In this document: positions 369 to 32,745 of the stretch, piece after piece
How the letters are laid out: each line of letters opens with the position of its first letter
How positions within the stretch are numbered: the stretch's first letter is position 1
NCBI RefSeq assembly: GCF_000027125.1
Contig: NC_017627.1
Length of the DNA: 64,000 nucleotides
Strand: one strand, 5' to 3'
Source of the DNA: Escherichia coli 042
GTDB taxonomy: Bacteria > Pseudomonadota > Gammaproteobacteria > Enterobacterales > Enterobacteriaceae
Made by a program: the position numbers and the translations under genes
The notes under the pieces: generated by a model
Seen by the model: the letters and a program-made list of their open reading frames with translations, nothing else
Told to the model about the DNA's origin: nothing
Databases searched by the model: none

Positions 369-1157
369 ACTCAACCGGGTTGATGAACTCCTGCCATGGA
401 ACGTAGTACTCACCAATAAATAAGCGTCAATACGGTGCTCCGTTGACGCTTACGAATGGTGGAATGACTGAGTGGACCTAACTGCAGGGCGATAGCCCGG
501 ACAGATAATTGCTCGTCGAATCTTAGACGTAATGCGTCTGGCAAATAAGAGCGAAAACCGGTGATATCTTTTGCTGTCTGAGAATTCATCGTTCGTGTCC
601 ATCAATATAGATGGACGCGATTGTTGCCAGACAGGACAACCATCACAAGACGTTACAGACGGAGCGCTTACTTTTGTGAAATTAATCAAAAAATATAAAA
701 TCACGACTTAATACGGAAAAAACTCTGTGCTACTCAGAACTGTCCGGTCATACTTCCCGACCGGATATTAAAAAAAGCAAATCTCATAAACTTCTTTCAG
801 CCTTCTGAATCCCTGGAGTAATGAAGGCTGCTTTTTTCGTTACACCCTTCCCCGGCTGCGCCGGTGGCAGTGTTCAGCCCTTTTTCGGGCAAACTGCTGC
901 CAGTCTGTCCGGGGCGCAACACCGGCAGCCCGTCGCCATGCTTCTGCCGCTTCCATCCAGCGTCCACTGACCTCCAGAATAACGGCCCGGCTTCCGGCAC
1001 GCTGCCAGCGCCAGACCTGACCGTTCCGTGAACTGTTTCTGAATCCATTCATCTTTATCACTCCTCTTTAACCCGTCAGTATTATGGTGTTAAATAATCT
1101 ACTGAATTGGCTTCCTTTCGGGTACGGAAGTTATTTCCTTTTAAGCCTTATTTCCCT

Positions 1158-1186
1158 GCCTCCTCTCTGATGGAGGCTTTTTTTTA
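1158..1186 (+). terminator. Hairpin plus T-run (plus-strand intrinsic terminator-like) abutting finO stop
   Basis: gcctcc...ggaggc stem followed by a run of 9 T on the plus strand. Confidence 0.35.
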
Positions 1187-1744
1187 TTTCTCATCAAGCA
1201 CGGCCTGAAGTTCTGCCTTTATCCGGTTCTGGCGGCGGATTTTATCCAGACGCGCTGCCGCATACGCTTCCTCCTCCTGAGAAATATGCTCCGTCACATA
1301 CCCTTCCGTGTCATACCGGCAGGCACCGGCTTTCATGGCACACAGATAGCTTTCTGAACGGGTGATGGCCTTCAGCGCCCTGCGCAGTTTTTTATGCGAG
1401 AGCGGGATATTCCGCTGCGCCACGTCTTCCAGTAACACGTCCCGGATACCGCAGGCCAGAAGCCGGGGCGTGTCACCGTCAAACAATCCCGGCCACCAGG
1501 GCTTCAGGGTGTTCACGGCCTCATCCAGTGTGGGCAGGTTCAGATAAATGGACAGCGCCTGTCTGGCCTGCGCTTTTTTTGCCGCCAGCTCTGCTTCCCG
1601 GGCTGCTTTCTCGGCCAGCTTCTGCTTTTTCACCTTCCACTTTGGTGGCGTGGTGACATTGATGATGGTTTTCCGGCTGCGGACAGGCGTCTCCCCTTCC
1701 GTTTTCCGCTTCAGTGTCAGTACCGGTCGCTTCTGCTCTGTCAT
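1184..1744 (-). CDS. finO: FinO fertility inhibition RNA chaperone
   Basis: 186 aa, [20 protein letters not shown]... near-identical to F/R100 FinO from memory; sits at distal end of tra operon. Confidence 0.95.
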
Positions 1745-2564: not shown

Positions 2565-5500
2565 TCAGTCTCCGCCCAGGGTTTTCTCTTTCTGCAGGTC
2601 ACGGACCATATCCCGCTCCATCTGCTGCAGACGCTCCTGCAGCAGATTTTCCCGGGCAACCTCCCGGACCGCTTCCCGCTCCCGTTGTGATTCACGCAGC
2701 ACACTCTCCGGCAGTGCGGTTTCCCGTTCAGAAGTGGCAGTCCGGTCACGTTCCTGCCCGGCAATCTCCCTGACAGCCTGCTCTGTTTTGCCATCCGGCA
2801 GGTCAGGTTTGTTCTCTGCCATTTTACGGACAATTTCATCTGCGCGACGTTCCGTTTCACGGCGGATGGCCTCTTCAGCCTGCCGCTGTGCCAGCACTTC
2901 AGCTGTAACCGGTTCACCATTTCCGGCCCCCGGCTGGACGCTGTTATCCGGGATATCCCCCCACACGCGGCCACCGGTGATGGCACCGGGATTCCACGGA
3001 CGACCTTCACCGGCAATTCTCACCACCACACCGCTGTCAGGATTATCACGGGCAATCCGGACACCATCCTGCATATTATCAGCCAGCAGGCTTTCTCCGT
3101 TACGGCTGCCCTGCAGGGCCACGAACTGCGCATCCCCGCTGCCCTTCACCCGTCCTTCACCGCTGAATCCCCGCAGCCCGTTTCCGTCATCCGTGGTCAG
3201 TGGGTTCAGCCAGATACCGGCGGACCTGCCGTTACGGTCAAACGCCGGCAGTGCCACATACGGCTGCGGATATTTACGTCCCGGTGCAATAAACCGTGCA
3301 GGGCTGTCTCCCCCGGCCAGCCCTGCCTGACGGAGAACGGCACGGCCTGCCGCCACGTCCCGCAGTTCCCGTGCCGTACTGAACAGCCGCTCTGCATTCA
3401 TGACCTCCCGGTCCGGTTTCGGTTCAAACACATCGTGGGCTGTTCCTTTCTGTACGGCATTGTTAATGGCATCCGTCCAGCCCTGACGGTTATCGGTGTA
3501 CACCTGCACATGCTGCTTCATACGCGACAGGGCCACGTAGGCTGACTCAAAGCCTGCCATCAGTTTCCGGTTACCTTCCGTGCCTTCAAGCGCGATGGCA
3601 AAGGTTTCACTCGCCCCCTGCGCACCGTGGGCGGTGATGGCATAGGCCAGGTCAATATGTTGCTCTGCCCGCTCCTGTCCGGGGCGAATCACCCGGGTCT
3701 GCTGTCCGTCCGACAGCGTGACACTGTCACCGGAAACCGCTGTCACCGTCCAGACGCTGTTGGCCACATAACCGCGCTCCCGGTCACTCTTCGTGAAGCG
3801 CATCCGGTCGCCGGTTCCCACCCGGATGGTGTCCGGGGTGTACAGTGTGACGCCTTCAGCCACCGCCTCCCGGGGCGAAATCAGCCGCGTGTTACCTTCC
3901 GCATCCTGCAGGGTTATCAGCCCGTCATCCTTACTGACACCGGCAATCCGGTGATACACATTATCCACCAGGGCAAGGGCATCCGGGTTATTCTCCCAGG
4001 TGGAGAGACGACGCAGTTCCCCGTCGCGTATATTCGCTGTATTCAGGACAGGCACCATGACCTGCTCTTTCCCCAGCTCACCGGCCTTTTCCCGTGCATC
4101 ATGAATCATGCTGTTCAGTACGCGCCGGTCCTCATTCAGGTGCGTGACAATCAGCGTCTGCTCCCGTGCTTCCGGTGTCCTGCCGGTATAGTCGCGGACA
4201 ATGGCTTCATACAGTGTCATGGGGACATCCGGGAAAGCCTCGCCTTTCAGCATCGCCTTCTGCTGCGCTTCTGCCAGTTTCGCTTCCTGGCTGTGACTGA
4301 ACTCCGTCACGGAGTGCTCCGGTGCCCATGCGCCCTCCAGACGTGGCACCTGAGACGGTTTCACACTCTCAAGCCCGGACAGTGCCCTTTCCACATCCCG
4401 GTTAATCAGGCTGTATACCGCCTCCCGCAGTTCCGGCGTCTGACGCACAATCTCCTTCATGATGACCACATCGGCAGCACTGCGCGTCTGCTGGAGACGG
4501 AAAGGCTGACCGGGCGCGATGGCCTGCAGCTGGTCCGTGTCACCGCTGGCCACAGCACGACCGCCACCGGCCGCAATCAGGGCGTATGCCCGTGCCATGT
4601 CGGTATTGCCCACCATTGAGCTCTCATCGAGCAGGAACAGCGTGTTGCTGAAATCCGGCGTTTCTCCGCTGCGCTGCTGCAGCTGCGTGTCATGCAGAAA
4701 GGACGCCAGCGTCTGTGCATCCACGCCGGCGCTGCGCATCTCACCGACCGCACGGTGCGTGGGCCCCAGCCCCACAACTCGGGGACGCTCACTCGCCGGC
4801 AGCATGTTCACGGCTGACATCACCGCCCGGAACTGTGTGGTCTTACCCACACCGGCATAACCCTGTACCACCGTGAAACGGTCGGACGTTTCCAGTATCA
4901 TGCGGGTGGCGGCACGCTGTCCTGATGTCAGTTTCTCCATGAGTTCGCCAGGTACTCTCTCCATCAGCGGCGTGACCGCCTCCTTACCTTCGAGAATATG
5001 GCGAAGAATGCTCTTTTCTGCCTCATACGACGCACGGGAAACCAGCAGGCCTGTGCCATAGCCTTTTGCCACATCCACATACAGTAAATCACCGCGTTTT
5101 ATCTGCGCATTGATTTCCCCTCCCAGTTCAGTAAAACCGGTTCCTTCTGCAGCAAACGACTTCGCCTCTGTCAGCAGGTCCACCATGCTGAAGGCCAGGT
5201 TTTTACTTTCCAGCACAGGAAGGGCCAGATGAATGGCCTGGTGTGCCGGCGTGTGCAGCCCGGCTTTCTGCAGACTGATAGCGGTTTCCAGCGATGTCTC
5301 ACCGGCCCGCGCCTTTATCTGCTCAGAAACCACCGTAAAGGAGGGATGGCGGGCAAGTTTTTCCGCAGTACGGGTTTCATCCAGTGAGGAATACAGCCGG
5401 ACATCACGACCGCTGCGGGCCAGACCGTTCAGGGTGGCGTTGTCCATTGCCATCTGTGTGACGGAGGCAAACACCGTCGCACTGTCACTGACGGAATGCC

Positions 5501-7835
5501 CGGGCGTTTCCACCCAGCCGTTCTCCAGCTTCAGTGCCGTGAACGGTGAATCGCTCACAGGCAGGGAGGCCGGTTCAGCCCGCCCCGGCACAACAACCGT
5601 CATCGCATCTTCACTGACGGATGCCACCTGCAGGCGGTCACCGCCGGAGACGCGGAGTCCGGGAATTTTCCCTGTCACCCTCAGTCGCTCGCCGTCTGCC
5701 ACCGGCATTTTTTCCGGCCGGAACAGCGACCAGCTGCTGTCCAGGGAGGAAATACGCACCACCTGCGTTTCGCCCTGCGCATCCCGCAGGGTCAGGCTGT
5801 GACTCTGCGCTGTCACCCGGTCTATCACATAGCGGTCATGACTGCGTGTCTCCGGGTTCCACTGCTCCATCACCATCCCCGGTCGGTACATATCCCGCAG
5901 ATAACGGCTCCGGCTGTCCAGCCAGACCGGTGACAGTGCAGTCATGGTCACCTCAGGGTGTCCGAGCACGCCCTGCGTTTTCAGCTCACTGCGAATGGCC
6001 TGTGTCAGTATGGCCTGTTCCCGTACCCCGCTGACCTGTGCCACGCTCTCTTCTCCGGCTTTCACGCTGGCCGCAAAATCTCCGGCCAGCCGGGCATAGC
6101 GGACATTACGGTCCGGTTCACTGATGATGGTGGCCGGTCGCTGTTCTCCGCCCTGCCAGCGATATGTGTTCACCCCGGCATCCTTCATGGCCATCAGCGC
6201 ACTGCCTGTACCGGTTCGCTGCCCGCTGTCGGTTATCAGGACCTGTACGTTATGACGTGCGGCACCGTCCAGCAGGGTTAACGTCTCTTTCAGGGAGAGT
6301 TTTTCGCCCTGGTCGACGATAACAGTACTGCCCGGCGTGAAGGCCATGCCCTCCTGCAGCTGACGACGTCCGGTTATCAGCTCACCGGACAGCCGTTCAT
6401 CCTGCTTCAGGTTCATCTGCGAGCGACGGTCAGCGGCGATAATCTGCATCTCCCGCCCCTGCTCCCGGGCCATCATGACCAGTTCAGCCACCCGCTCACG
6501 CTGCCCGGCTGCACCGCCCTGCCCGGAAACAATGGCCAGCGACGGACGGTCCTGTGCCAGAACACTGACCGCATCGCTGTAACCAGCCGTCCGGGGGACA
6601 CTTTTCTCCGGATGTACGGTCACCCGGTTCTGTTTCATGATGTCACGACTGAGTGCCCGGACGGACAGCTCATCGAGCACATGAATTCCTGATGTGAACA
6701 GCCCCTTCTCACGGTCGAGGGGGATAAGCTGCTCACGACTGATGGCCTCATCGATACCGGCGCGTGCCCGTTCAATCACACCATTTTCCGGCGGCAGTAT
6801 ACCGACCGTTCTGGCCAGCACGTCCGTGTACGTAAACTGCACTTTTCGTTCACTTAATCCGGCAATGGCCTGTGTCACCGCCTGCTGCACATCCGGCCCC
6901 TCCTGTGAAACAGCCCCGGGCGCCTGCGTGTGGGTCTCCGCACGCTGATCCGCCGCGTCACGATATGCCCGGATGTCGAACCCGGTTTCCTTCAGCGTCT
7001 GCATCCATTCAGCCATTCTGACTTCAGGATCGACGTGCTGTTTGGATTTTCGCGTATCCAGTGCCGCCACATCCCGGGATTTCAGTGAGGCCCCTTCACC
7101 GACGGCCTCCCGGATAGCCTGTGAGCGTCCGGAGAAGGCTTCCACCGGTACGCCCGGCATCTCCCACATACCGTGCTTACCGACCACTTCGGTTTCATAG
7201 CCCAGTGCCTCAACCTGCTCTTTCAGTTTTTCCCGGTAGAGCCTGCCAAAGGCAATCTGATTAGCGTACACATTCTCAATGAACCCCGTTTTCCCCACTT
7301 TGTCACTGCTCAGTGTCTTCCACTCACCGTTATGCTGCGTGACATTAGCCACCACCGCATGCGTGTGTAACTGTGGTTCCTGATCGCGACTGGTGTCGTG
7401 GTTAAACAGTGCCATCACCAGATTACCGGTCAGTACCGTTTCTGACTGTCCGTCCGTCATCACCCGTGTGGAGGCCAGCGCCTCCACCTGACGAACAGCA
7501 AAGTCCACGGCCTGGTTATGTGCATCAATCAGGCGCTTATCGCCACCTAACATGGCCATCATGGAGACACTTTTGGGGGCGGAGAAGGTCAGGTCGTAGC
7601 CGGGACGATGCTTATTACTGCCATCCTGCATGCGGCTTAGATCCGCTCCGTCCGGCAGCCTTCCCTCCAGAAGACGGGTAAAAACATCCTTATCGACACT
7701 GCCCTGCAGTCCCAGCTGTTCAGCCCCCCTGCCGGCCCAGCGTTCTCCCATGCTGCCCAGTACATAGTAATTATCCTTGTCGGTATAATAGTTACCGGCA
7801 CTTCCGGCCGATCTGACCTGCGCGATACTCATCAT
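2565..7835 (-). CDS. traI: TraI relaxase/helicase
   Basis: 1756 aa, same length as F TraI; N-terminal relaxase region, helicase Walker A GYAGVGKT, long C-terminal domain. Confidence 0.97.
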   Translation of the reverse strand: MMSIAQVRSAGSAGNYYTDKDNYYVLGSMGERWAGRGAEQLGLQGSVDKDVFTRLLEGRLPDGADLSRMQDGSNKHRPGYDLTFSAPKSVSMMAMLGGDKRLIDAHNQAVDFAVRQVEALASTRVMTDGQSETVLTGNLVMALFNHDTSRDQEPQLHTHAVVANVTQHNGEWKTLSSDKVGKTGFIENVYANQIAFGRLYREKLKEQVEALGYETEVVGKHGMWEMPGVPVEAFSGRSQAIREAVGEGASLKSRDVAALDTRKSKQHVDPEVRMAEWMQTLKETGFDIRAYRDAADQRAETHTQAPGAVSQEGPDVQQAVTQAIAGLSERKVQFTYTDVLARTVGILPPENGVIERARAGIDEAISREQLIPLDREKGLFTSGIHVLDELSVRALSRDIMKQNRVTVHPEKSVPRTAGYSDAVSVLAQDRPSLAIVSGQGGAAGQRERVAELVMMAREQGREMQIIAADRRSQMNLKQDERLSGELITGRRQLQEGMAFTPGSTVIVDQGEKLSLKETLTLLDGAARHNVQVLITDSGQRTGTGSALMAMKDAGVNTYRWQGGEQRPATIISEPDRNVRYARLAGDFAASVKAGEESVAQVSGVREQAILTQAIRSELKTQGVLGHPEVTMTALSPVWLDSRSRYLRDMYRPGMVMEQWNPETRSHDRYVIDRVTAQSHSLTLRDAQGETQVVRISSLDSSWSLFRPEKMPVADGERLRVTGKIPGLRVSGGDRLQVASVSEDAMTVVVPGRAEPASLPVSDSPFTALKLENGWVETPGHSVSDSATVFASVTQMAMDNATLNGLARSGRDVRLYSSLDETRTAEKLARHPSFTVVSEQIKARAGETSLETAISLQKAGLHTPAHQAIHLALPVLESKNLAFSMVDLLTEAKSFAAEGTGFTELGGEINAQIKRGDLLYVDVAKGYGTGLLVSRASYEAEKSILRHILEGKEAVTPLMERVPGELMEKLTSGQRAATRMILETSDRFTVVQGYAGVGKTTQFRAVMSAVNMLPASERPRVVGLGPTHRAVGEMRSAGVDAQTLASFLHDTQLQQRSGETPDFSNTLFLLDESSMVGNTDMARAYALIAAGGGRAVASGDTDQLQAIAPGQPFRLQQTRSAADVVIMKEIVRQTPELREAVYSLINRDVERALSGLESVKPSQVPRLEGAWAPEHSVTEFSHSQEAKLAEAQQKAMLKGEAFPDVPMTLYEAIVRDYTGRTPEAREQTLIVTHLNEDRRVLNSMIHDAREKAGELGKEQVMVPVLNTANIRDGELRRLSTWENNPDALALVDNVYHRIAGVSKDDGLITLQDAEGNTRLISPREAVAEGVTLYTPDTIRVGTGDRMRFTKSDRERGYVANSVWTVTAVSGDSVTLSDGQQTRVIRPGQERAEQHIDLAYAITAHGAQGASETFAIALEGTEGNRKLMAGFESAYVALSRMKQHVQVYTDNRQGWTDAINNAVQKGTAHDVFEPKPDREVMNAERLFSTARELRDVAAGRAVLRQAGLAGGDSPARFIAPGRKYPQPYVALPAFDRNGRSAGIWLNPLTTDDGNGLRGFSGEGRVKGSGDAQFVALQGSRNGESLLADNMQDGVRIARDNPDSGVVVRIAGEGRPWNPGAITGGRVWGDIPDNSVQPGAGNGEPVTAEVLAQRQAEEAIRRETERRADEIVRKMAENKPDLPDGKTEQAVREIAGQERDRTATSERETALPESVLRESQREREAVREVARENLLQERLQQMERDMVRDLQKEKTLGGD

Positions 7836-21454: not shown

Positions 21455-22101
21455 TTCCCGGAATCTCCTTTCCCTGCCAGTAAATCATGAGCCACCTGCC
21501 GGCAGTCACCCGTGGCGGCAACTTTCTCCAGCGCCTGCCTGACGCGCAGATTTCCCCGGATGATGTCGTGCCCCTGGCTGCAGAACACCACCAGGGCCGG
21601 AACGCTGCGAATGCCGTACTGTGAAAACAGCGTCGGGTCGATCTGAACACCATCAGTTGCGCCGTCTTTCACCAGGGACAACACGGCGTCAGCCGTGGCC
21701 TTCAGGTCGTTGTTCACCATGCCCCGCAGCGTGGCGGGAATACCGTAGTGCCGGGTTTCGCTCAGCATCCTTTTCAGCCCCTCTTCGGGTATGGAAAACG
21801 ACACAAAATACAGGGCACCCTGCCGGGGTTTCCCGTCCTGCGAAGCCTGCTGTTTACGAACCAGCTCATCCAGAAAATGGTTATCTGAACGCTGAAGGGG
21901 GTTTTCCAGCACCTGTTTCTCCGCCCAGGCTTTCAGCTGATGGTCAGGTTTCTCTCGCAGTTGTCTGCTTAAATTTTCCTGCTGCTTCAGGAACTGGCGG
22001 TTTTCAGTTGTGTTCACATTTTCTGAAGCATGAACAGCAAGATGCATCCCTGCTGTCAGAGCAAAAAGTGCAAATATTTTCCGGTTCATGATATTTCTCA
22101 C
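21451..22101 (-). CDS. trbC: TrbC periplasmic pilus assembly protein
   Basis: 216 aa with signal peptide, between traU and traN. Confidence 0.9.
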   Translation of the reverse strand: MRNIMNRKIFALFALTAGMHLAVHASENVNTTENRQFLKQQENLSRQLREKPDHQLKAWAEKQVLENPLQRSDNHFLDELVRKQQASQDGKPRQGALYFVSFSIPEEGLKRMLSETRHYGIPATLRGMVNNDLKATADAVLSLVKDGATDGVQIDPTLFSQYGIRSVPALVVFCSQGHDIIRGNLRVRQALEKVAATGDCRQVAHDLLAGKGDSGK

Positions 22102-22409
22102 TTTCTGCTATTTACAGGCATGAACTCATCAGAAAAAAGATAATTGAGAAAAACAGCCATAAACACACATGTAAATGTCACCTTCAGATATAATCTGACA
22201 AGTGTCACTTGTTCTGATATATCTGCCTTCTTCCATTCATGAATAATTTCAGCGAGAAAACTGTCAGGTGCAAAATAAAATAATATAACGGGCACCATTA
22301 CAAGACCAAAAGGAAATAAATTTAATGTTCTGCTTATCAGCCTGAGCAGCACAGCACCTATTTTCCTGAGGTGCTGAATATATTTACTGTCCATTGTTGC
22401 CATTTTCAT
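22098..22409 (-). CDS. Hypothetical small two-helix membrane protein inserted between traU and trbC
   Basis: 103 aa, hydrophobic segments IGAVLLRLISRTLNLFPFGLVMVPVILFYFAP and VTFTCVFMAVFLNYLF; strongly AT-rich relative to flanking tra genes. Confidence 0.45.
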   Translation of the reverse strand: MKMATMDSKYIQHLRKIGAVLLRLISRTLNLFPFGLVMVPVILFYFAPDSFLAEIIHEWKKADISEQVTLVRLYLKVTFTCVFMAVFLNYLFSDEFMPVNSRK

Positions 22410-22432
22410 TTCCTCTTATTCATTAAAATGAT

Positions 22433-23425
22433 TTACAGGAATACACAGTTACGTTTACGCCACATCAGGTAGCCGAAGTTTTTCTTTGTGTTGGGCGGAT
22501 TTTTTCCCGTCTCCCAGCGCATCACACTGCGCCCGAACGGATGGCACTGTCCGCTGTCCGGATACATATTCACCATCTGATAACGCCAGCGTTCTTTGGG
22601 CAGGATTGGGGACGGATATTCATTACAGACGGCGTTATTTTTCCCGATGGTTTCCATAATCATGCCCTGACGGTGCAGCTTGAATGCCATGCGTTCACTG
22701 ACCAGCAGGGAGGACTGCAACGGACTGGACTCATTACTCACCCAGCCATTGAACGGGTACATACTGCCCTGCGAACCGGCACACCAGAACAGAACATCGA
22801 GAGGCATATTAAAGGCACTGGCAATGGCATCTGCTGCGCAGGCCCCCTGTGCTATCGGATTGGCAAAAATGACGGCTTCCGGGTTGAGAATGGTGGTCAG
22901 GCTGCTGTCCGTCCAGGTGGGGTCGATTTCAGAAAGATAAGCGATATCCAGGTCACCACCTTCCAGACAGCCCAGCGATGTGATGATGTTCAGCCAGTAC
23001 GTCAGCGGGTATTTGTACCAGTGAACGTGATAGAACGCCCCGTTCACCTGCTTCTCATCCTTTTTCGCCGTTCCCTGTGCCGTTTTACCAAAAGCCGGCA
23101 GGCTGAAGCCCAGGTTAACCATGCATCCCGGTGATCGGGTGACGTCCGTCAGCGCCATCGGCTCCCAGTAACCAATGGCCAGCCCGATACGCCTGAACAG
23201 CGGCGGCGGTGCCGGACAAATCTGAATGGGCATCGACGGGTTCGCCGTGTCGGGGACCTTACCCTGACTGACTTTGATACTGCCCAGCGAGAGCGGGAAA
23301 ATACAGCTCCAGCAGATATCCGTGATCGGGTTTACAAAACGCCCCTCACAGGCAGAATCCGCAGACGCCGCAGGGACATGACCGGCGAGAAGGAATAACA
23401 TCAGCAGCCACAGTCTTCGCTTCAT
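22433..23425 (-). CDS. traU: TraU pilus assembly / DNA transfer protein
   Basis: 330 aa with signal peptide; F TraU length. Confidence 0.95.
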   Translation of the reverse strand: MKRRLWLLMLFLLAGHVPAASADSACEGRFVNPITDICWSCIFPLSLGSIKVSQGKVPDTANPSMPIQICPAPPPLFRRIGLAIGYWEPMALTDVTRSPGCMVNLGFSLPAFGKTAQGTAKKDEKQVNGAFYHVHWYKYPLTYWLNIITSLGCLEGGDLDIAYLSEIDPTWTDSSLTTILNPEAVIFANPIAQGACAADAIASAFNMPLDVLFWCAGSQGSMYPFNGWVSNESSPLQSSLLVSERMAFKLHRQGMIMETIGKNNAVCNEYPSPILPKERWRYQMVNMYPDSGQCHPFGRSVMRWETGKNPPNTKKNFGYLMWRKRNCVFL

Positions 23426-24054
23426 TTTCTGCCCTCCTCTGCCGAAATAAATTCCACCTTCAGGAAGCGATCGCCGGGAACGGCGCTCACCCGTGCCGGG
23501 ACCTGATCAATGCCGAGGCGCTGGCAGAGCACACCGTTCTGGTCAAAGTAAATACGGCTGTCCAGCACTTTCTGCATCTCCGGGATACTGCCCTGCACGA
23601 GGATAATTTTGCTCTCCAGTGTGGGCGGCGTCTGGCGTTTCATCCAGGCCACCTGCGCCGGATCATCGCCATTGATGAAATACAGCGTCTGGTTAAAAGG
23701 AACATACTGCAGCGGATTCATCACTTCACCCTGACGGGCAAACACCCGCCCTTCGTTATCCCGGATATCCGCAGCCAGTCTGACGGACGGGTCAAACAAC
23801 CGGCTGCTGTATTTCTCCGTGCGTCCGATACCGGGCACGGCAGGGGGCCGCAGACTGTTGCGGATCACCCGCTCCTTAAAGGCATCCATTTTCCGGCCCA
23901 TCTCACCGGACTGCTCCAGTGCCGTCAGGCGCTGCATGATCACCGTCAGCATGTCCGGCTCCTTTACCGGCCACAGATCGCCCCAGGTGCCAAGATCGGC
24001 GGCGGCCACACTCTGCCCCCATATCAGCAGGGCAATCAGCCCCCGGCATCTCAT
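23422..24054 (-). CDS. traW: TraW pilus assembly protein
   Basis: 210 aa from internal Met MRCRGLIALLIWGQSVAA (signal peptide); the longer ORF extension is probably not translated. Confidence 0.9.
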   Translation of the reverse strand: MRCRGLIALLIWGQSVAAADLGTWGDLWPVKEPDMLTVIMQRLTALEQSGEMGRKMDAFKERVIRNSLRPPAVPGIGRTEKYSSRLFDPSVRLAADIRDNEGRVFARQGEVMNPLQYVPFNQTLYFINGDDPAQVAWMKRQTPPTLESKIILVQGSIPEMQKVLDSRIYFDQNGVLCQRLGIDQVPARVSAVPGDRFLKVEFISAEEGRK

Positions 24055-24437
24055 GGTTCCGCCCTCATTCGCCGGGCAATATCCTGCTGGATTTCCCGGG
24101 TGATATCCGGTGCCCCCTGTACCACGGCAGGCGACACCAGAATGACCGCGTGGTGTTTCTGCTGCCATGCCTGCAGGCTGGCTTCCAGTGCCGTGTTAAA
24201 ACGCGCTGAAAGGGCTTTTGACTGTGCTTCTGACAGTTGTTTCTGACTGGCGCTGTCAAAAAACGCATCCACGGTCTGTTTCATGTTGAAGGCGGCAGTC
24301 ACCGGTGCGTTCAGTCTGACAATGCCATAACTGATGGCTGCGTTCAGTAACACCATTGCCAGGCATCCCGGCACGGTCCACCACCAGTGGCTGCGTCGGG
24401 GGGCTGTAACGTCAGTCGTTTTTTGCGTTGTGGTCAT
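24051..24437 (-). CDS. trbI: TrbI
   Basis: 128 aa, same length as F TrbI, one TM helix. Confidence 0.9.
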   Translation of the reverse strand: MTTTQKTTDVTAPRRSHWWWTVPGCLAMVLLNAAISYGIVRLNAPVTAAFNMKQTVDAFFDSASQKQLSEAQSKALSARFNTALEASLQAWQQKHHAVILVSPAVVQGAPDITREIQQDIARRMRAEP

Positions 24438-27061
24438 GCAACACTCCTGTATTTCTCATGTTCTTCCAGCCAGGCCTCCAGCGAAGCCATCTCCGGCCCC
24501 GATTTCTTCCACGCCAGCTGCCACACCGCCTCATGAATACTCATACCCTCTCTGCGTTTCTGCTGCACAAACTCAAAATCCGGGCCGTCAGAGCTGTACA
24601 TGGCACGGCTTAACGGGTCCACAAACAGACGGTGCCAGGAGGAATGGTTTTCCACCTGCAGCAGGAAGGAACTGAACCACTGGTCTTTGGCCGCACCAAA
24701 CTTACCAATCATGTCGCGCTGCAGTGGCAGGAACTGGTCCGGATACAGCTGGTTGTATTTCGCGAACTCCTTCGCACTCTGTTTGAGGATAATTTTGTAG
24801 GAGGAGTTACCCCATGCCGCGCGGGCCGCACTGGAGGCCTTGTCAGAGTCAAAGTCGACGATGTTCTGTGTGATGGTGATATAGGCACCGGTATGACGGC
24901 GGGCGGTACGGTAACCTTTCTCAATAAATTCACCGACCTTGTGATTTTTGAAGTCCAGCAGACGCCAGCCTTCATCAATGACGTTCAGTTTCTTGAGGTT
25001 ACGCGGCGTGCGGTACATCCGGTTCTCAATGTAAATGATAAGGCTGAACATCACCGCAACCAGCAGGGACGGACGGTCTTCCAGTCCGCCCAGCTCCAGC
25101 ACCACCATTTTCGCATCATCCCGCAGGGACGGCTCATCGGAGTTGAAATACTGGCCATAAGTGCCGTTAGCAGTGTACTGGTCAAGCAGCACAATCATTT
25201 CGTCCAGACGGCTGCGGATAGTCGGTGACTCTACATACTGGTCGTTATCACGGGCGTTTTTCAGGAAATCCACCACATCATCGATGCGCGCCTTATTCTT
25301 TTTAGCCAGCCAGGAGGCCCTGACCGCCTGCAGCAGCAGACCTTCATGCACTTCATCCAGGTTACCGTTGGGGCTGGCCATCACCGACAACTGGTCGCGG
25401 ACACGCTCCGCTGACTGGTCAATATCGGTGATGTTCGCAAACGGGTTAAAACGCAGGGTTTCACCGTCCAGATATACGCCCCCCATGTTCTCACACAGGG
25501 ACTTGTAGCCATCCCCCATGTCGAACACCACGGCAAAGCCCCCGGAGTCCAGCACGCTGCGGATAAGTGGCTGTATCAGCCCGGTTTTACCGGCCCCGGA
25601 GGTGCCACAGACCGCCATGTTGTAGTTGGTGTTATTCATCCCCCGGAAGAAAATATCGATAAACGCCAGCTGATTACGGTAGGTGGGTGCCAGCAGACCT
25701 GCCGGTGTCAGGGGGTTATCCGCCACTAACGGCATCAGGTTGGCCACATTAAAGCTCTCTGCGCGCTGTACCACTCCGGCCTCTTTCAGCTGTTTAAACA
25801 ACCCTTTCCCGGCCATAAAGGGCAGGCAGGTCAGGAAATTGCGCATGTGGTTAAAGCGCGGTGAAATCAGCTCAAAACCGTTTTTACGGAAGCTGTTCAG
25901 GATGTCCTGCTCCACTTCCAGCGCCGTTTCATTATTGTCCTTGCAGAATGCTGTGATGTTGAGGAAGTAGGACACGACAGAGGACTGACCGGAGCCCAGC
26001 CGCTGACGCAGTTCCCCCCACTCCTTCGCCTCTTTCTCCACGGACGGAAACCATTTGGCATAGGAGGTCTTCGACTTTTTCTCCAGGTCCATGTACTTCA
26101 GGTTGGCTTCGCTGTGAGTTTTCACCTGGTCTTCCACCACCAGAGTCAGCGTCAGGATGAACGGACAGGAGATGGACAGTTCCGGGTTCAGCAGGTTGCT
26201 GTAGTTGTCGGCCATGTTCCACAGGAAGGCGATTTCCGGGTTACGGGCCAGATGGAAATTCAGGATGCGGGCCGTGCTGTTCCTGCCGTTCTCACGCAGG
26301 CCCAGCGTCAGGTAATCCGCCCGGACTTTCAGGTCAAAACTGTCCTCCACACACTGATAATTCAGATCAGAATACGGGTCCAGCTGACGTCTTTTCGGAT
26401 ACAGGGAGTCCGGGTTATGGTTAATCATCTCCCCGACAATATCGATAAAGGCCTGTGCATCCACCGCCTGTGTGGTGATACTGGCCCCCTGTAACGACGC
26501 CCGGATGATTTTCACCAGGTTTTCCATTTCCAGAATGTCAGCCCGGCTTTTTTTCTTCGAGGGAGAACAGTACGAGAAGAATACCCGGTAATGGCGCAGG
26601 GTCAGGGGCAGATTCATCCCCTCCGGCAGCGGAAACTGTGTCGCTGCCGCGTTCATATAATAGGCACGGGTAATGGCGTTAAACCGTTCAGCCTGTTCAC
26701 CGGACCAGGAGAACTCACGCAGCCCGTATTCAATTCTGTCACCAACAAGCTGACTGGACATCAGATGGATGCAGAACGGCACTCCGCGCGGCAGTTTGGT
26801 GCGCAGCATGTGGTCGAGCGCCTCCACAATGGACTCATTCGCCCCATTGATGGGAATGGCTTCCAGCATAAAGCCCATCGTGGTGTCATTCATGAACAGA
26901 CCGGATTCCTGGTTATAATCACGGTACGGCAGCAGACGGCTGAACTGCGGGAAGCTCATTTCGCCCAGAACTTCATTGGCCTTTGCGGATTCGTCAGGCA
27001 GTTTCAGTGCTGTGACGAGGGAGTTAACCGCCTGAGTGACGGCCTCAAGTGGGTTATTCAC
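24434..27061 (-). CDS. traC: TraC VirB4-like ATPase
   Basis: 875 aa, same as F TraC; Walker A GTSGAGKT. Confidence 0.97.
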   Translation of the reverse strand: MNNPLEAVTQAVNSLVTALKLPDESAKANEVLGEMSFPQFSRLLPYRDYNQESGLFMNDTTMGFMLEAIPINGANESIVEALDHMLRTKLPRGVPFCIHLMSSQLVGDRIEYGLREFSWSGEQAERFNAITRAYYMNAAATQFPLPEGMNLPLTLRHYRVFFSYCSPSKKKSRADILEMENLVKIIRASLQGASITTQAVDAQAFIDIVGEMINHNPDSLYPKRRQLDPYSDLNYQCVEDSFDLKVRADYLTLGLRENGRNSTARILNFHLARNPEIAFLWNMADNYSNLLNPELSISCPFILTLTLVVEDQVKTHSEANLKYMDLEKKSKTSYAKWFPSVEKEAKEWGELRQRLGSGQSSVVSYFLNITAFCKDNNETALEVEQDILNSFRKNGFELISPRFNHMRNFLTCLPFMAGKGLFKQLKEAGVVQRAESFNVANLMPLVADNPLTPAGLLAPTYRNQLAFIDIFFRGMNNTNYNMAVCGTSGAGKTGLIQPLIRSVLDSGGFAVVFDMGDGYKSLCENMGGVYLDGETLRFNPFANITDIDQSAERVRDQLSVMASPNGNLDEVHEGLLLQAVRASWLAKKNKARIDDVVDFLKNARDNDQYVESPTIRSRLDEMIVLLDQYTANGTYGQYFNSDEPSLRDDAKMVVLELGGLEDRPSLLVAVMFSLIIYIENRMYRTPRNLKKLNVIDEGWRLLDFKNHKVGEFIEKGYRTARRHTGAYITITQNIVDFDSDKASSAARAAWGNSSYKIILKQSAKEFAKYNQLYPDQFLPLQRDMIGKFGAAKDQWFSSFLLQVENHSSWHRLFVDPLSRAMYSSDGPDFEFVQQKRREGMSIHEAVWQLAWKKSGPEMASLEAWLEEHEKYRSVA

Positions 27062-27220
27062 ATGAATTCCTTAGTTGAAAAATAAAGCGAGAAATGCGGT
27101 AGCCATGAAGGGAATACCTGTAATTAACGCGCCATTTCCCGGCGCATATACAAAGATTTCGGTTTTCTGAATATCAACTCATGTTCATCCGGAATTAAAT
27201 CAATATGTTCTGCGACTGAC

Positions 27221-27442
27221 TTATGCATAATGTTTTCTCTGCTTTTCCTGATACGCCTGACATTCAACGCACAACGTCACACCGGGAAATATTTTCCGCC
27301 GGGCTTCCGGAATAGGATTTCCGCATGCTTCACAGAGATAAACAGGAATACCATGAGCATTTATTTTCTGGCGTATCCGGTTTATTCCTGTCATGGTCAG
27401 TTGTTCTGTTACTGAATATGCTTCATCGACTTCATCACTCAC
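27221..27442 (-). CDS. traR: TraR DksA-like zinc-finger protein
   Basis: 73 aa, CxxC...CxxC motif (CEACGNPI...CVEC). Confidence 0.9.
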   Translation of the reverse strand: MSDEVDEAYSVTEQLTMTGINRIRQKINAHGIPVYLCEACGNPIPEARRKIFPGVTLCVECQAYQEKQRKHYA

Positions 27443-27576
27443 GGAATATTCCTCCCGACATGTTCTGACACGCTACCGCCCATCCCTTTTCACGCACAGG
27501 GCACTCGTTTTACAGGCAGATTTTGAATACAGAAAGCCCGCCGGCATTGCCGGCTGATATACAACTTCAGGGCCAG

Positions 27577-28092
27577 TTAATTAATACGTGGTTTTCCCCA
27601 CGCAGACGGTTTAATAACAAAAAACACACTGGATGGCTGATGATAAACATCCTGATTATCAATATAAGGCGCTATCCATAATGCAGCCGTCTGCTCACCC
27701 GTTCTTAGCGGGCGGGGAGGTGTTACCGGCGCAACTGAACTGACCGGAACAATCGTTTTCACTTCCCGGGCAGCCGTAAACAACGGACGTGGTGCCAGCA
27801 GTTTCTGCTCCGGAAGTGCCGTCACCGCAGGTCTGCTGCCGGACGGAGTGGTCGCGGTGACGGTCTGCACCGGCATTGTCCGGAAGTTCCCTTCAGCCAG
27901 GCGCGGCAGTGATGCCGCAACCGGCTTTGCTTCTGAGGACTGCTCCAGTTTTTTGGCCTTCTCATTGGCCTGCTCCATCGTCATACAGGTATCGGATGTG
28001 GTGGCGTTACACTCAAATTCCGTATTTGTTCCTGCGCAGCCGGAAAGTAATAAGGTTCCCAGCAGAGGAATAAATAAAGAAATCTGTTTCAT
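27577..28092 (-). CDS. traV: TraV outer-membrane lipoprotein
   Basis: 171 aa, lipobox LLLSGC. Confidence 0.9.
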   Translation of the reverse strand: MKQISLFIPLLGTLLLSGCAGTNTEFECNATTSDTCMTMEQANEKAKKLEQSSEAKPVAASLPRLAEGNFRTMPVQTVTATTPSGSRPAVTALPEQKLLAPRPLFTAAREVKTIVPVSSVAPVTPPRPLRTGEQTAALWIAPYIDNQDVYHQPSSVFFVIKPSAWGKPRIN

Positions 28093-28403
28093 TGCCCTTC
28101 TCCTTTTTTATTACTCCCCACAACAGCAGAAATTAACTCTGCTGTCAGATTTGTTTTTCCTGCACAGGGTTGTCCGGAGACTACTGTATTTCCCGGAGAA
28201 GAAAATAAGCTCATCGATATACCCTTCTTCATCACACCGACAGCTGCCATATTAAAATTGTGCGGCAATGATTCAGAACTGAACAGCTTCGGAGCAGGAA
28301 GAACTATTTTTGTGGTGCAGTTACTGAGAACAGCATTCATAAAATCATCTGATACGCTTTTATCCGGTACAGAGCGTGCAGTAATAATATTAATATTACG
28401 CAT
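28089..28403 (-). CDS. Small ORF in the trbD/trbG position
   Basis: Position between traP and traV; start chosen at the internal Met nearest the traP stop. Confidence 0.4.
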   Translation of the reverse strand: MRNINIITARSVPDKSVSDDFMNAVLSNCTTKIVLPAPKLFSSESLPHNFNMAAVGVMKKGISMSLFSSPGNTVVSGQPCAGKTNLTAELISAVVGSNKKGEGQ

Positions 28404-28977
28404 GTTCATTTTTATCTCCGTTGTTTCTGTTTGCCCTGTCATCAGGGAAATAAACATGGCATTTCCTGATTTTTTCCGACAGAGAAGTGTCTTCTGCAAG
28501 AACTTCCTTCAGACGCTCATCTGCTGTTGCCACACGGACACATTTCATTTTTCCGGGTCGCACCGGATATTTCCCGGCGCCTGCCGCAAACGACATATAC
28601 ATAAGTGCCAGCGTTGCCCAGAATGCGGTGACCAGTTGCATCAGTGACCGGTCAGTCTCCCTGACATAATCTGCAGCATCAGCAGCACGGTAACGGCAGA
28701 TTTTCTCTTCTGCTCCTGGAAGATCATGCAGAGAAGGCAAACATTCTCTTACAGGAAACTGCCCGGCAGGGGCTGTTTGTCTTACGAAGTCAATTTCCTG
28801 AACCAGTAATTTTCCTGGTGTGGTGTTGTCCTTCCATAAAACAAACAGAGCCATCAGGGCCATTGTGGCCAGCGGCCAGATAACCACAAACCTGACGACC
28901 CACAGCAGCCAGCGAACGACAAACGCCACACGGAATGTCAGTGCATCACCCGCCATTTCCGCCCTCCTTGCCGGCAT
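28396..28977 (-). CDS. traP: TraP
   Basis: 193 aa membrane protein downstream of traB. Confidence 0.85.
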   Translation of the reverse strand: MPARRAEMAGDALTFRVAFVVRWLLWVVRFVVIWPLATMALMALFVLWKDNTTPGKLLVQEIDFVRQTAPAGQFPVRECLPSLHDLPGAEEKICRYRAADAADYVRETDRSLMQLVTAFWATLALMYMSFAAGAGKYPVRPGKMKCVRVATADERLKEVLAEDTSLSEKIRKCHVYFPDDRANRNNGDKNEHA

Positions 28978-30397
28978 CCCCGCCCTGCGGGTTCTTGTCT
29001 CCGGACATAAACTGCTGCGGATTCAGATTGCCCAGCTGCTTCAGCATCTGGTCGGTGTTAAAACCGTTCAGGTGGCTTTCTGCCGAGGGAGGATTCGGCA
29101 CAGGGCTTTCCGGGTTACCCTCTTCCGCTGTACTCTGTGACTGCTCCAGCGCCATTTCCTCCACGGTTTTCAGCTGGAAGCCGTCCTGGAACACCACGGT
29201 CACTTCGTTGCCCGCACCAATCGGTATCACCGGGTGATACTGTTCGGCACGTTTGATGTAGTAGTCACTGAGCGTCTGTGCGGCTTTCGATGCGCCGCCA
29301 CCGATACCCATTTTAAGGACATCGCCGGCCCCGTAAGCGGCTGTGGCACCCAGCCCGACAGCCGGCTGGGAGGCGCGCTCCATTCCCTGACCGATACCGT
29401 CAACAAATCCCGCGCCCCATGCCCAGCCGAGGATTTTGCCGTTACGCATCACCACTTCGCCCTTGATACCGTTTTTACCCCGGAAGCTGACATGCCCCTT
29501 AATCGGCATATCAATGGTTTTGCCATTCTTCAGGCAGCTGATATTACGGGTGCGAACAATAGCACGTTCACTGGAGACATCCCCCCAGGCTTCCAGCCCC
29601 ACAAAACATCCCGTTGCGTCATACGTCTTGCTGTTCGGCATTTCCACCAGACCGGTGATACGCAACTGCATCGGCACCGTGGATTCATTACCGGTGACTG
29701 AGGCATTGGCATCCGCCCCTTCAATCAGCATGGCTTTCGCAAAACTTCCTGACGGAATGTACGGCAGCGATGGTCCCTGTTTTCCCTCATTACGGGTAAA
29801 CACCTTACGCTGTATCCGGTTAGGCACCGGCACAGACTGGTACGTCACCTGTGGTGGTGGCGTGACACCATTCCCGGGATAAAACGCCGTCGGCGGTGGA
29901 ACAGCAACGCTGCCCTGCGGCGGGAAGGATACGGGGGTGTTTCCTGGCTGTGGTTCGCCTTCCGGCCCGGGCGGTGAGGCTGGCGTCTGCGGTACAGGCT
30001 CACCGGTCGCGGTGACGGGATTTGCACCCAGGGCTTTTACCTGCTCTGCCAGGGCAGCATTATCCTGTCCCAGCTTTTCAATACGACGCTGGTCATCACC
30101 GCGCTGTTTGTTCAGGACATCCAGTTCACGACGGATTTCCTCATACTGCTTCTGCATCTGCGCTGCCGTCACCTGCATCTCTGTGGTGGCATGCTGACGC
30201 ACCTTGTCATCAAAGGTCGTATCCACCACACCGGTCATATCCGGCACAGGCTCCTGTTCAGCCACCGCCTCACCGTTACCGGACATGTCCACATCAGACA
30301 GATACAGTGCACCACCAATCGCGGATGCTGCACCGACAACCACAATCCCCAGCCACAGGTACTGCTTGCGTTTCACAATGGTATTGATACTGGCCAT
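28946..30397 (-). CDS. traB: TraB (VirB10-like)
   Basis: 483 aa, N-terminal TM helix, proline-rich linker, C-terminal domain. Confidence 0.95.
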   Translation of the reverse strand: MASINTIVKRKQYLWLGIVVVGAASAIGGALYLSDVDMSGNGEAVAEQEPVPDMTGVVDTTFDDKVRQHATTEMQVTAAQMQKQYEEIRRELDVLNKQRGDDQRRIEKLGQDNAALAEQVKALGANPVTATGEPVPQTPASPPGPEGEPQPGNTPVSFPPQGSVAVPPPTAFYPGNGVTPPPQVTYQSVPVPNRIQRKVFTRNEGKQGPSLPYIPSGSFAKAMLIEGADANASVTGNESTVPMQLRITGLVEMPNSKTYDATGCFVGLEAWGDVSSERAIVRTRNISCLKNGKTIDMPIKGHVSFRGKNGIKGEVVMRNGKILGWAWGAGFVDGIGQGMERASQPAVGLGATAAYGAGDVLKMGIGGGASKAAQTLSDYYIKRAEQYHPVIPIGAGNEVTVVFQDGFQLKTVEEMALEQSQSTAEEGNPESPVPNPPSAESHLNGFNTDQMLKQLGNLNPQQFMSGDKNPQGGDAGKEGGNGG

Positions 30398-31125
30398 CAG
30401 TTGCCCTCCCCGTCACGGATGACATACACATCCATGCGCGCACCTGCCAGTAACTGGCTGGCAGGCTGGCTGAACATCACGGCACGGGTTCCCGGCTGCC
30501 AGAAATCACTTTCCCGGATATTCAGGGCAGACAGCGTTTTATTTTCCACGGCAAAGCGGACCATCTTCAGGTGATTCCCCGTCCATACGGCATCTGCCAC
30601 TGAAGACAGCCCCGCCGGGGCCTGCAGGGTTTCCTTTGTCACAGGAACCTGATACCAGCCTGCAGGTAATTTTCCGCCACGGACAGCCTGGCTGATGGTC
30701 ACAAGCAGGGATTCGTAAGGCGTGGACGTTTCCCACGCACCGGCTTCTTCTCCGGTTCCGCGCAGGTCACTGACCAGCTGAATGGTACGCCCCGCGCCTT
30801 CACGGGGAACGGCCTGAATGGAAAGATTCAGACCACGTTCTGTTTCCAGAATGAACGTAAAGGGCTTTTTGTTGACGGTGGCAACCACCACACCGCCGGA
30901 GGCGGTCTGCTCATTATTGGTCAGGGCACCATCCAGACTGTTCACGGCGATAATCCGGTCACCGGGAACGGTAAACAGATTCGGGCTGGTATTGCTGATG
31001 GCAATACTGGCCTGACCACCGTTCACCATTGGCACCACGGTGGGGGACAGCGTACCGTTTGCGGCCATCACGCTGCAGGAAAAAAACAGGCTGCCGAATA
31101 TTATTGCCGTATTATTTTTTCTCAT
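30397..31125 (-). CDS. traK: TraK secretin-like protein
   Basis: 242 aa, same as F TraK. Confidence 0.95.
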
Positions 31126-31678
31126 CGTCTGTTTCCCCGAAATTATCCAGCCAGGTCACCCCGTTTTCCCGCTTCAGAATAAGGATGTAATGTTTGATAT
31201 CAGTGAAAGGTTTTGAATCACCAATCCAGGTTTTAAGCACACCACGAATTTCCACACGGCCATACTGAGGCCAGACACGAACACTGGTCTGGAAAAAGGC
31301 TGAGTTCACGTTATCGTTTTTAATACGCTTCGCTTCTTCAGCCAGAATAACTTTCATCTGGTTCTGTGCGCCCGGGCGGATATATTGCAGAAGCGCCTGA
31401 TGTGAGGCATCGACGGTTTCTGATGAAACATTCAGACGGAGGGCAATAAATGACAGCGCCATCTGCTGTAAATAAGAGGCGTCGGCACTGTTCTGTGACA
31501 CGGCAAAGGGCACATTAAATCCCATTGGGGTCACGGCAGTGCGTTGCTCATTCTGAAGACGGTAGTTATTCACCCCCTGAATGACGTTAACAGAGAGGCT
31601 GAGAACAATAAGCACTGACATAAATATAAAGGCGATGGCCATTACACGACTGGTACTTAAACGGGCACCGTGTTCCAT
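31112..31678 (-). CDS. traE: TraE
   Basis: 188 aa, same as F TraE. Confidence 0.95.
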
Positions 31679-31699
31679 ATAACAATCCTGGTATCAGTT

Positions 31700-32011
31700 C
31701 TATTTAATCCACTGCCGGAAACACGAATCGGGAACATTATGAAAAATACCGCGCAGCAGGGCTGTTGGCATATACCAGTAAATCAGGTCACGTAACCAGG
31801 AACTGCCCCGCCCTTTTTTCAGTTTTTTAATCCCGAAATAAACCAGAACCGCTGCACCAATACCGAACAGATATTTTGATGTTGTGATACCCCAGCCAAT
31901 ACAGACTGCTGCGGGGATCAGTTCATCCAGTGGCAGGCCAAACCAGCGGCTCTGGTTGGTCAGTGTTTCCGGGAAACGATATTTCTTAAGTTTATTCTCG
32001 TCTCCCGACAT
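31700..32011 (-). CDS. traL: TraL
   Basis: 103 aa small membrane protein following traA. Confidence 0.9.
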
Positions 32012-32025
32012 CGTTTTATTTCCTG

Positions 32026-32391
32026 TCAGAGGCCAACGACGGCCATACCCACAGCAATAAATACAGAGATGATGGCAAAACCGGCCAGGAACTTGACGTT
32101 TTTGGTCATCATGTACATGACCGCACCGACCAGAACTTCAGCCAGAACAACCCATTTAACAACACTGGAGTCCTTACCGAAGGTCGCCTTAACCGTGGAG
32201 TTACCACTCTGCATCAGGTCCTGACCTGCCCCCTGGGCGGCCATTGCCAGTTGCGGGAAGAACATCATCAGAACAGCAGCAGGGATCACAGCGCGAACCA
32301 GGCGAAGCATATTCAGACGAGTGAATTTAGAAAAAAACGATTTCTTTTCAACGGGCGCAGAAGCACCCTGAACACTTAAAACAGTATTCAT
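32026..32391 (-). CDS. traA: TraA propilin (F-pilin)
   Basis: 121 aa, leader plus mature pilin ...[67 protein letters not shown]. Confidence 0.97.
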
Positions 32392-32424
32392 ATGATTCCT
32401 CTGTTTAATATTGATAGATAAAAA

Positions 32425-32652
32425 CTAAAGTTCTTTAAATGTTGACTCGTTCTCTTCGATCACCTCCCTGAATATTTCTTCATTATAGAAATCAGGAAAC
32501 CGTTTCAGATGATCTCTGAGACGGATCTGAACCTCTATAGTTTTACTTCTACCGCTACGATCTTTGGCCCGAATAAGTTGGTTATTTGTATCTTCATCGA
32601 GATACACTGAGACTGTTCTGCTTATCCCGCCTCTCGCGTTACGCCTCCTCAC
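32425..32652 (-). CDS. traY: TraY (R100-type, 75 aa ribbon-helix-helix oriT accessory protein)
   Basis: 75 aa basic protein immediately upstream of traA. Confidence 0.85.
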   Translation of the reverse strand: MRRRNARGGISRTVSVYLDEDTNNQLIRAKDRSGRSKTIEVQIRLRDHLKRFPDFYNEEIFREVIEENESTFKEL

Positions 32653-32745
32653 TCAATTCACCTCTGTTTCCCGACTAATAAAATCATGATTGCACAGAAA
32701 CCGACAAAAAAAAACACACCAAAATTGGCGTGCCTTATTTAACAT

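Follow-up and report, generated by a model that had tools for sequence, protein, structure and literature searches.

An ANR-family gene beside finO, the antisense RNA AS-pc02 and IS66-family remnants at the distal end of an F-type transfer region

INTRODUCTION

What lies between the last gene of an F-type transfer region and the insertion sequences (ISs) beside it? The question is raised by the start of a 64,000-nucleotide stretch of Escherichia coli 042 (RefSeq assembly GCF_000027125.1, contig NC_017627.1), the whole of which is called the window here. The distal end of the transfer region stands at the window start on the minus strand, with traI at 2565-7835, traX at 1799-2545 and finO at 1184-1744. 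An initial annotation, made from the sequence alone, had treated positions 380-1157 as a single uncharacterised segment between finO and an IS256-like fragment, with nothing recognisable in it, and had guessed at a small RNA (sRNA) or a remnant gene. Database comparison returned a known backbone gene and an IS remnant, both of the matches that the annotation had itself named as telling against its label. The 73-amino-acid (aa) open reading frame (ORF) of the segment is an annotated gene of the ANR family, and positions 757-943 correspond to the Rfam family AS-pc02.

The interval is a junction at which conserved F-plasmid backbone meets a heap of nested IS fragments, and not a single unit. The known backbone gene and the catalogued antisense RNA, together with terminator-like hairpins and IS66-family remnants, account for every position of 372-1186. 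We hold the identities of these parts (gene, RNA and IS pieces) with high confidence, and we consider it probable that a backbone ANR gene, an antisense RNA and IS debris, with a mechanism of the type described for the family, together best explain the locus.

RESULTS

A selected protein gene follows finO

Positions 840-1052 of the minus strand hold a gene of 70 codons whose predicted product has a mass of 8.25 kDa and an isoelectric point (pI) of 12.0. Its assignment draws on annotation, the NCBIfam model NF033650, the ratio of nonsynonymous to synonymous change (dN/dS), the published family signature and an AlphaFold2 model. The same positions are annotated 'ANR family transcriptional regulator' in the E. 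coli plasmid p542093_2 (CP091411.1), and the same gene follows finO in intact IncFII backbones. The gene equals the 73-aa ORF at 840-1061 minus its first three codons. Its likely start is the ATG at 1052-1050, 8 nt downstream of a Shine-Dalgarno sequence GAGGAG (1061-1066, minus strand), because the GTG at 1061 falls inside that sequence.

The coding test compared all frames across 11 homologues of about 60-100% DNA identity. Synonymous and nonsynonymous differences in the ANR frame (pS = 0.353, pN = 0.126) gave a dN/dS of 0.29, and the two other sense frames and two of the antisense frames gave values of 1.13-1.25. The remaining antisense frame reached 0.40, an expected mirror effect, since its wobble positions face those of the ANR frame. 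Variable sites were distributed 27/25/45 over the three codon positions of the ANR frame. The frame at 840-1052 is under purifying selection and is a real protein gene.

The three short minus-strand ORFs listed in the initial annotation were all present (450-704, 84 aa; 797-1048, 83 aa; 840-1061, 73 aa). Their description as rich in Trp and Arg fits the 73-aa ORF (15 Arg and 5 Trp, 27% together) and fails for the 84-aa (12%) and 83-aa (8%) ORFs. One of these short overlapping ORFs is an intact, selected and widely conserved ANR-family gene. The other candidates were rejected as genes. The 83-aa ORF is in the +1 frame (dN/dS about 1.2), the 84-aa ORF is in a different frame from the tnpA fragment described below and straddles the IS/backbone junction, and the plus-strand ORFs at 821-970 (49 aa) and 864-1031 (55 aa) are unconstrained antisense frames. 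The ANR gene has 62% G+C, between AT-rich flanks of 36-40% G+C, and this composition accounts for the overlapping open frames and for part of the Arg/Ala/Trp richness.

Disrupted copies occur on other plasmids. The ANR gene is frameshifted in pMyNCGM160 (locus L006, about 1660-1880), and in the pAA plasmid of the 2011 outbreak strain O104:H4 C227-11 (L024, 2501-2875) ISCro1 truncates its 5' end and finO is lost.

Family membership and predicted fold

The 70-aa protein matched NF033650 (ANR_neg_reg) with 33.1 bits (cut-off 32; E = 3.7e-8; profile positions 3-51 of 54) and gave no match in Pfam, even at E <= 1. Among 1.84 billion representatives, a profile search picked out 59 relatives; the distant relatives P0165-P0175 are clear ANRs, with NF033650 scores of 44-66 bits. 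All of the aligned subfamily members (18/18) matched the model at E <= 0.01, several of them under the cut-off and annotated 'hypothetical'. A 28-sequence alignment was gap-free over residues 16-62, with A23, E27, A35, W39 and R58 invariant and C62 nearly so. The published ANR signature consists of A10, E14, A22, W26, A29, W43 and R47, spread over three helices in proteins of <10 kDa (PMC4983702). Six of these seven positions are matched in exact register by A23, E27, A35, W39, A42 and R58, C62 is in register too, and at 70 aa and 8.25 kDa the protein lies below the size limit.

Aar, the ANR archetype of enteroaggregative E. coli (EAEC), offers the closest comparison. Like Aar, and like Rnr and Cnr, the protein is small (<10 kDa), all-helical (as predicted here), plasmid-borne and covered by the same NCBIfam model. 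Aar translated from CP091411.1 aligned in the same register at an offset of +9, with nine identities, mostly at signature positions, and its residues A14, E18, A26, W30, A33, R49 and C53 correspond without gaps to A23, E27, A35, W39, A42, R58 and C62. Unlike Aar, the protein has an extra invariant Trp (W51), and its gene sits in the conjugation backbone after finO, not in a virulence regulon. It is through the family model, the intermediate sequences and the signature register that the protein is tied to the family.

AlphaFold2 run with the 28-sequence alignment predicted three helices (residues 5-28, 32-45 and 49-66) and no beta structure, at a predicted local distance difference test (pLDDT) score of 87.3. 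A single-sequence model with beta strands (pLDDT 65) was discarded as unreliable. In fold comparison with Foldseek the best matches were TPR-type proteins (template modeling [TM] score up to 0.77) with non-significant E-values, and the search of the PDB gave nothing at E <= 0.001. A sequence search of solved structures returned just a designed TPR protein and Hop/STI1, both weak matches, and the profile segment 'lElrgdfaeAaeaWlraArlAprt' is in register with consensus-TPR positions 11-34. From the predicted model we read the protein as one TPR-like hairpin with a capping third helix, putatively a protein-binding module.

CP091411.1 (loci L017/L018; features at 82117-82329, 87523-87723 and 92080-92874) is a pAA-type EAEC virulence plasmid and the only public plasmid with the exact junction of the window. 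Two ANR-family genes lie 5.2 kb apart on it, canonical aar as well as the finO-linked one, and it also has aggR, aap, aaf and aat. The genomes in which ANR genes occur encode AraC/XylS-type regulators, which often control them. Most plasmids that carry the finO-linked gene are ordinary IncF backbones.

Linkage to finO

The finO gene itself (186 aa, 1184-1744, minus strand) is given by the ORF list and by the FinO annotation in the identical record. Thousands of F-like plasmids have the backbone part of the interval, 672-1183, next after finO; a 519-bp backbone segment matched 4,948 records in a PLSDB search and was positioned after finO in every locus opened. More distant relatives hold the same place. 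The genes for P0128 (48% identical) and P0142 (34% protein identity) also come directly after traI-traX-finO, and at the P0142 loci, where FinO is still 80% identical, the gap to finO is 16 nt and the gene has its own GGAGG site. Even at 34% protein identity the ANR gene still comes after finO.

No sense-strand terminator stands between finO and the ANR gene; both hairpins have their T-runs on the opposite strand. Because of this, and of the 16-nt gap in the distant relatives, finO and the ANR gene are most likely expressed jointly, the latter being the final gene in the transfer region. A literature search on the gene downstream of finO returned nothing useful.

In a diverged F-like lineage (L020-L022, 5001-7464), genes of the PerC and Hha families come after the 34%-identical ANR-like gene, making up a small-regulator cluster where the transfer region ends. 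The intact IncFII order is finO, the small gene, a thermonuclease gene, hha, a DUF2726 gene and copB-tap-repA. In the window, IS material takes the place of everything past the small gene, with loss of the nuclease, hha and DUF2726 genes. Across backbones, three unrelated nuclease-type genes alternate in the slot behind the finO-linked ANR gene, of the thermonuclease/SNase, PIN or NYN type (L003, 1964-2425; L007/L011, about 510-1111; L008/L009, 420-1046; L023, 5532-5993), mostly followed by hha and the DUF2726 gene; in the window this slot was deleted by IS insertion.

When 672-1186 was compared with L003, L011 and L008, identity along the ANR gene shifted abruptly. L003 was 99% identical at 672-756 and 61% at 944-1052, and L011 was 100% identical at 1053-1157 and unrelated left of 840. 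These abrupt changes point to recombination breakpoints within the ANR gene or at its ends.

A catalogued antisense RNA overlaps the 3' end of the gene

The initial guess of a small RNA was borne out. Rfam family RF02876, the cis-antisense RNA AS-pc02, matched 757-943 of the plus strand over its full model (1-185) with 191.8 bits (E = 9e-51; gathering score 40). The match covers the last 104 nt of the ANR coding sequence (840-943) and its 3' flank. AS-pc02 was matched at the corresponding position in L003, L015 and L006, which take in an intact IncFII backbone (L003, 229.5 bits), Shigella pINV and a diverged plasmid, and it had no match in backbones with a PIN or NYN nuclease gene after the ANR gene. 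RF02876 is described as 'Antisense to pHK01_099' of the IncFII plasmid pHK01. The full-length match, placed with respect to finO and the ANR gene just as in L003, agrees with that description, and from its position pHK01_099 would be this ANR gene. Unlike an intact AS-pc02 locus, the one in the window has its left flank cut by the IS66-family end, 3 bp before a candidate -35 box.

That box belongs to a candidate sigma-70-like promoter, TTGTGA-16-TAAAAT (674-701, plus strand), 3 bp from the IS junction and with an implied start near 708. The promoter-like site is also found in the intact IncFII backbone L003 and is conserved in thermonuclease-type backbones. Published AS-pc02 primers for reverse transcription-PCR (RT-PCR) match 797-816 and 870-889 exactly, and RT-PCR detection of the RNA has been reported in outer-membrane vesicles (PMC12370729). 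The amplicon of that study (window 797-889) falls just as much within the 3' end of the ANR mRNA; it identifies the strand only if reverse transcription was strand-specific.

Hairpins flank the gene on the antisense strand

The two plus-strand sites with a hairpin and a T-run that the initial annotation reported are real, and of unequal strength. The stronger, at 1158-1185, has the stem GCCTCC-N8-GGAGGC (1158-1177) followed by T8 (-12.3 kcal/mol, z = -3.8), and the finO stop codon, TAA at 1184-1186, falls within its T-run. The terminator scan picked it up, returning 3 terminator-like sites where 0.8 +/- 0.9 were expected. The site at 1158-1185 is present in every backbone variant, with differing stems, and there is no T-run on the finO sense strand. 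The other site, at 798-837, consists of the hairpin CAGCCTTC-N17-GAAGGCTG (798-830) and the following CTTTTTTCG, with a T-run at 832-837, and abuts the ANR stop codon at 840-842. This hairpin is weak taken alone (-12.5 kcal/mol, z = -1.5), and the scan missed it because its loop exceeds 8 nt; the stem does not vary among 8 homologues. In all three backbone variants, antisense-oriented hairpin/T-run sites are retained to either side of the ANR gene, though the flanks are non-homologous.

The best conserved block of the locus is non-coding. In the gap between finO and the ANR gene, positions 1111-1157 have a mean pairwise identity of 0.86, versus 0.75-0.80 for coding sequence, and are overlapped by a second plus-strand hairpin (1104-1141; core CTTCC-N10-GGAAG, then a T-rich tail). 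On the plus strand, 1111-1157 and 1158-1185 together form two stem-loops with a U tail, and judged by this sequence pattern 1111-1185 looks like the 3' end of an sRNA. The scan and inspection by eye gave no consensus plus-strand promoter feeding the hairpins at 1104-1186, and no Rfam family matched the block.

IS66-family remnants adjoin the backbone

The segment proposed by the initial annotation does not reach the IS256-like fragment as one piece, as two IS66-family remnants (372-453 and 454-671) intervene. BLAST against annotated plasmids split 1-671 into four nested pieces. The innermost to the backbone is the left end of an IS66-family element (454-671, minus strand), cut at 453/454, with its terminal repeat GTAAGCGCTCC... 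running from 671; it is 97% identical to IS66-family left ends at L004 and elsewhere. From a start at 589, its tnpA runs for about 46 codons (452-589) before it is cut by the ISEc23 end. This is the remnant gene that had been guessed at; the 59-aa ORF at 410-589 is the truncated tnpA, with a partial NF038385 match of 36 bits against a cut-off of 150. Next to it on the plus strand lie the last 82 bp of an ISEc23-like IS66-family element (372-453), comprising the 3' end of its transposase gene and the right terminal repeat ...GACGCTTAC, with 98.8% identity to L005 3001-3082, annotated ISEc23.

Both ends carry the inverted repeats starting GTAAGCG that mark the IS66 family, GTAAGCGCTCCGTCTGTAACG leftward from 671 and ...GTTGACGCTTAC ending at 453. 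The remnants resemble ISCro1, ISEc23 and a relative in pTD225C4_139 in these repeats, in the NF038385-like tnpA start and in their 97-100% identity. Unlike complete IS66 elements, with a full tnpA-tnpB-tnpC between two ends, the interval contains about 46 tnpA codons, just the 82-bp right end and the 218-bp left end; tnpB and the transposase gene are missing. Positions 372-671 are non-functional debris. The junction between backbone and IS is at 671/672, where uninterrupted plasmids read ...ACACCTTA and then TTTTGTGAAATT. The left end of the IS66-family element has displaced the usual downstream backbone (nuclease, hha and onwards), and the ISEc23 right end sits inserted in the tnpA of that element.

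The two remaining pieces lie further left on the minus strand. An IS256-family fragment at 163-371, with 'IS256 family transposase' BLAST matches, contains the 5' end of a transposase gene with a start codon at 300 and is overlapped by ORF 145-300 of the ORF list. The left end of ISCro1 (IS66 family) at 1-162 includes a tnpA start (ATG at 78) with a partial NF038385 match and is 100% identical to L002 4001-4161. In both IS66-family left ends, palindromes with 7-bp arms lie a few bases upstream of the tnpA start (TGTCCAT-N8-ATGGACA at 86-107 and GTCCATC-N6-GATGGAC at 597-616); going by sequence, they could represent an operator, or an RNA hairpin, that this IS family conserves.

Positions 1-1800 of the window are 100% identical to CP091411.1, the only PLSDB record to cover more than 80% of them, and thousands of F-like plasmids match parts. 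The same arrangement and junction were absent from the complete RefSeq E. coli genomes searched. The window nevertheless belongs to a different plasmid: over the first 8 kb, identity between the window and CP091411.1 drops to 98.5%. A tra segment of about 14 kb (window about 22090-36033) is missing from CP091411.1, where IS1 truncates the operon before trbC, and the transfer region on the plasmid of the window is probably more complete than that of CP091411.1.

DISCUSSION

A possible mode of action

What might the finO-linked protein do? Within its family, Aar binds the central region of AggR and H-NS, and Rnr binds H-NS and Ler (PMC4983702, PMC5570504, PMC10148876); Aar and Rnr are reported not to bind DNA. 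By analogy with these proteins, we tentatively propose that the finO-linked protein binds and modulates regulators of the AraC/XylS and/or H-NS type, is expressed jointly with finO and is subject to tuning by AS-pc02. Translation would begin at the ATG at 1052 behind GAGGAG, on a transcript shared with finO. The protein, like Aar and Rnr, would most likely not bind DNA; its TPR-like helical hairpin, capped by the third helix, would grip activators of the AraC/XylS type, silencers of the H-NS family, or both, and thereby dampen or retune them. AS-pc02, transcribed from the candidate promoter at 674-701, would pair with the 3' end of the ANR mRNA and adjust its stability. In being small and encoded by a plasmid or mobile element the protein recalls the H-NS antagonists and modulators Hha/YmoA, H-NST and T7 gp5.5, whose action is through H-NS and not through DNA; this is a functional analogy, not one of sequence or fold, and it runs through Aar and Rnr. 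In intact backbones, hha lies two genes downstream.

A wider role can be sketched as speculation that we think rather unlikely. The finO-linked ANR would be the terminal, co-transcribed gene of the transfer region and a link from plasmid to host, binding H-NS-family silencers (or Hha/H-NS) and AraC/XylS activators whenever the transcript of finO and the transfer genes is produced. It would feed back on H-NS-silenced tra promoters and retune the AggR, Rns, VirF and PerA virulence regulons of the many pathogens with IncF plasmids, with AS-pc02 and the antisense terminators setting its level, and on pAA-type plasmids it would act as a second ANR beside Aar.

Several observations pull the other way. 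The NF033650 score is just 1 bit over the cut-off, and many near-identical proteins are annotated 'hypothetical'. The helix-3 Trp of the signature (W43) is replaced by a Phe, F54, invariant in the subfamily, a conservative change. Identity to Aar in register is 15% (61 aligned positions), and the direct comparison with Aar is non-significant (no BLASTP match; hhalign E = 0.086). At pI 12.0 and a net charge of +11, against 8.5 and +2 for Aar, the protein is also much more basic, which could point to binding of nucleic acid. An AraC-type gene, aar, aggR and hha were not found within the 64-kb window. On the sense strand between finO and the ANR gene, neither the scan nor inspection by eye gave a sigma-70 consensus promoter. 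The pseudogenised ANR copies on other plasmids imply that the gene is dispensable. As for the RNA, the Rfam 5' end at 757 conflicts with the start near 708 implied by the sole consensus promoter, and the Rfam model passes through the terminator-like hairpin and T-run at 798-837. The AS-pc02 structure lacks covariation support (RNAalifold covariation term +1.22, 1/42 compensatory pairs), as computed from 8 homologues that are too similar to be informative.

Alternative explanations

The charge of the protein leads to an alternative in which the ANR/TPR-like fold is retained but binds nucleic acid instead of AraC/H-NS regulators, as an Arg-rich partner in RNA or DNA transactions where the transfer region ends, perhaps alongside FinO, the RNA chaperone. 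Fifteen of the 70 residues are Arg, the N- and C-terminal tails are rich in it, the whole finO-linked subfamily is strongly basic, and the linkage to finO is tight and ancient. Set against this, neither Pfam nor NCBIfam gave a match to a nucleic-acid-binding family, the conserved residues are those of the ANR protein-binding signature in a family whose canonical members are reported not to bind DNA, and the Arg content is partly a by-product of the 62% G+C; we regard this alternative as unlikely. Stabilisation of the plasmid by a pair resembling a type I toxin-antitoxin system, made up of the small basic protein and its cis-antisense RNA, is highly improbable in our estimation. A small ORF overlapped by a convergent small RNA with a promoter-like site and terminators would suit such a pair, and F-like plasmids carry hok/sok nearby; yet the protein has no hydrophobic segment and is predicted to be an all-helical soluble ANR member, the RNA overlaps the 3' end and not the translation start, PIN- and NYN-type backbones keep the gene without AS-pc02, and frameshifted or truncated copies persist where the RNA is not lost.

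Two further alternatives deny the gene a role. If the whole stretch were decaying, functionless DNA between finO and the insertion sequences, its ORF and hairpins would be leftovers, as the IS debris at 372-671, the loss of the usual downstream genes (nuclease, hha and DUF2726) and the ANR pseudogenes elsewhere might suggest. We consider this very unlikely, given an intact frame under purifying selection with an intact ribosome-binding site, conserved beside finO in thousands of plasmids and down to 34% identity, and given that 1111-1157 is the best conserved block. Alternatively, only RNA would be functional, whether AS-pc02 or a plus-strand RNA ending at 1186 or both, and the 70-codon frame would be incidental. 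The strong Rfam match, the conservation of plus-strand terminators on both sides of the gene and the resemblance of 1111-1157 to an sRNA 3' end fit this idea, to which we give hardly any credence: the frame-specific synonymous excess and the conservation of amino acids through relatives of 34-50% identity could not be produced by constraint on RNA alone, and the 8 closely similar homologues gave no covariation support for the RNA.

Implications for F-like plasmids

The reading that we prefer, a backbone ANR gene accompanied by AS-pc02 and bordered by IS debris, means that about 5,000 of the F-like plasmids sequenced have an ANR anti-activator family member beside finO. Genome surveys report an 'anr' marker on IncF plasmids (PMC11357031), which is probably the finO-linked gene. 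If the protein acts as Aar and Rnr do, a modulator of H-NS and AraC-type regulators would be built into common resistance and virulence plasmids, with relevance to the control of conjugation and to cross-talk with host virulence regulons.

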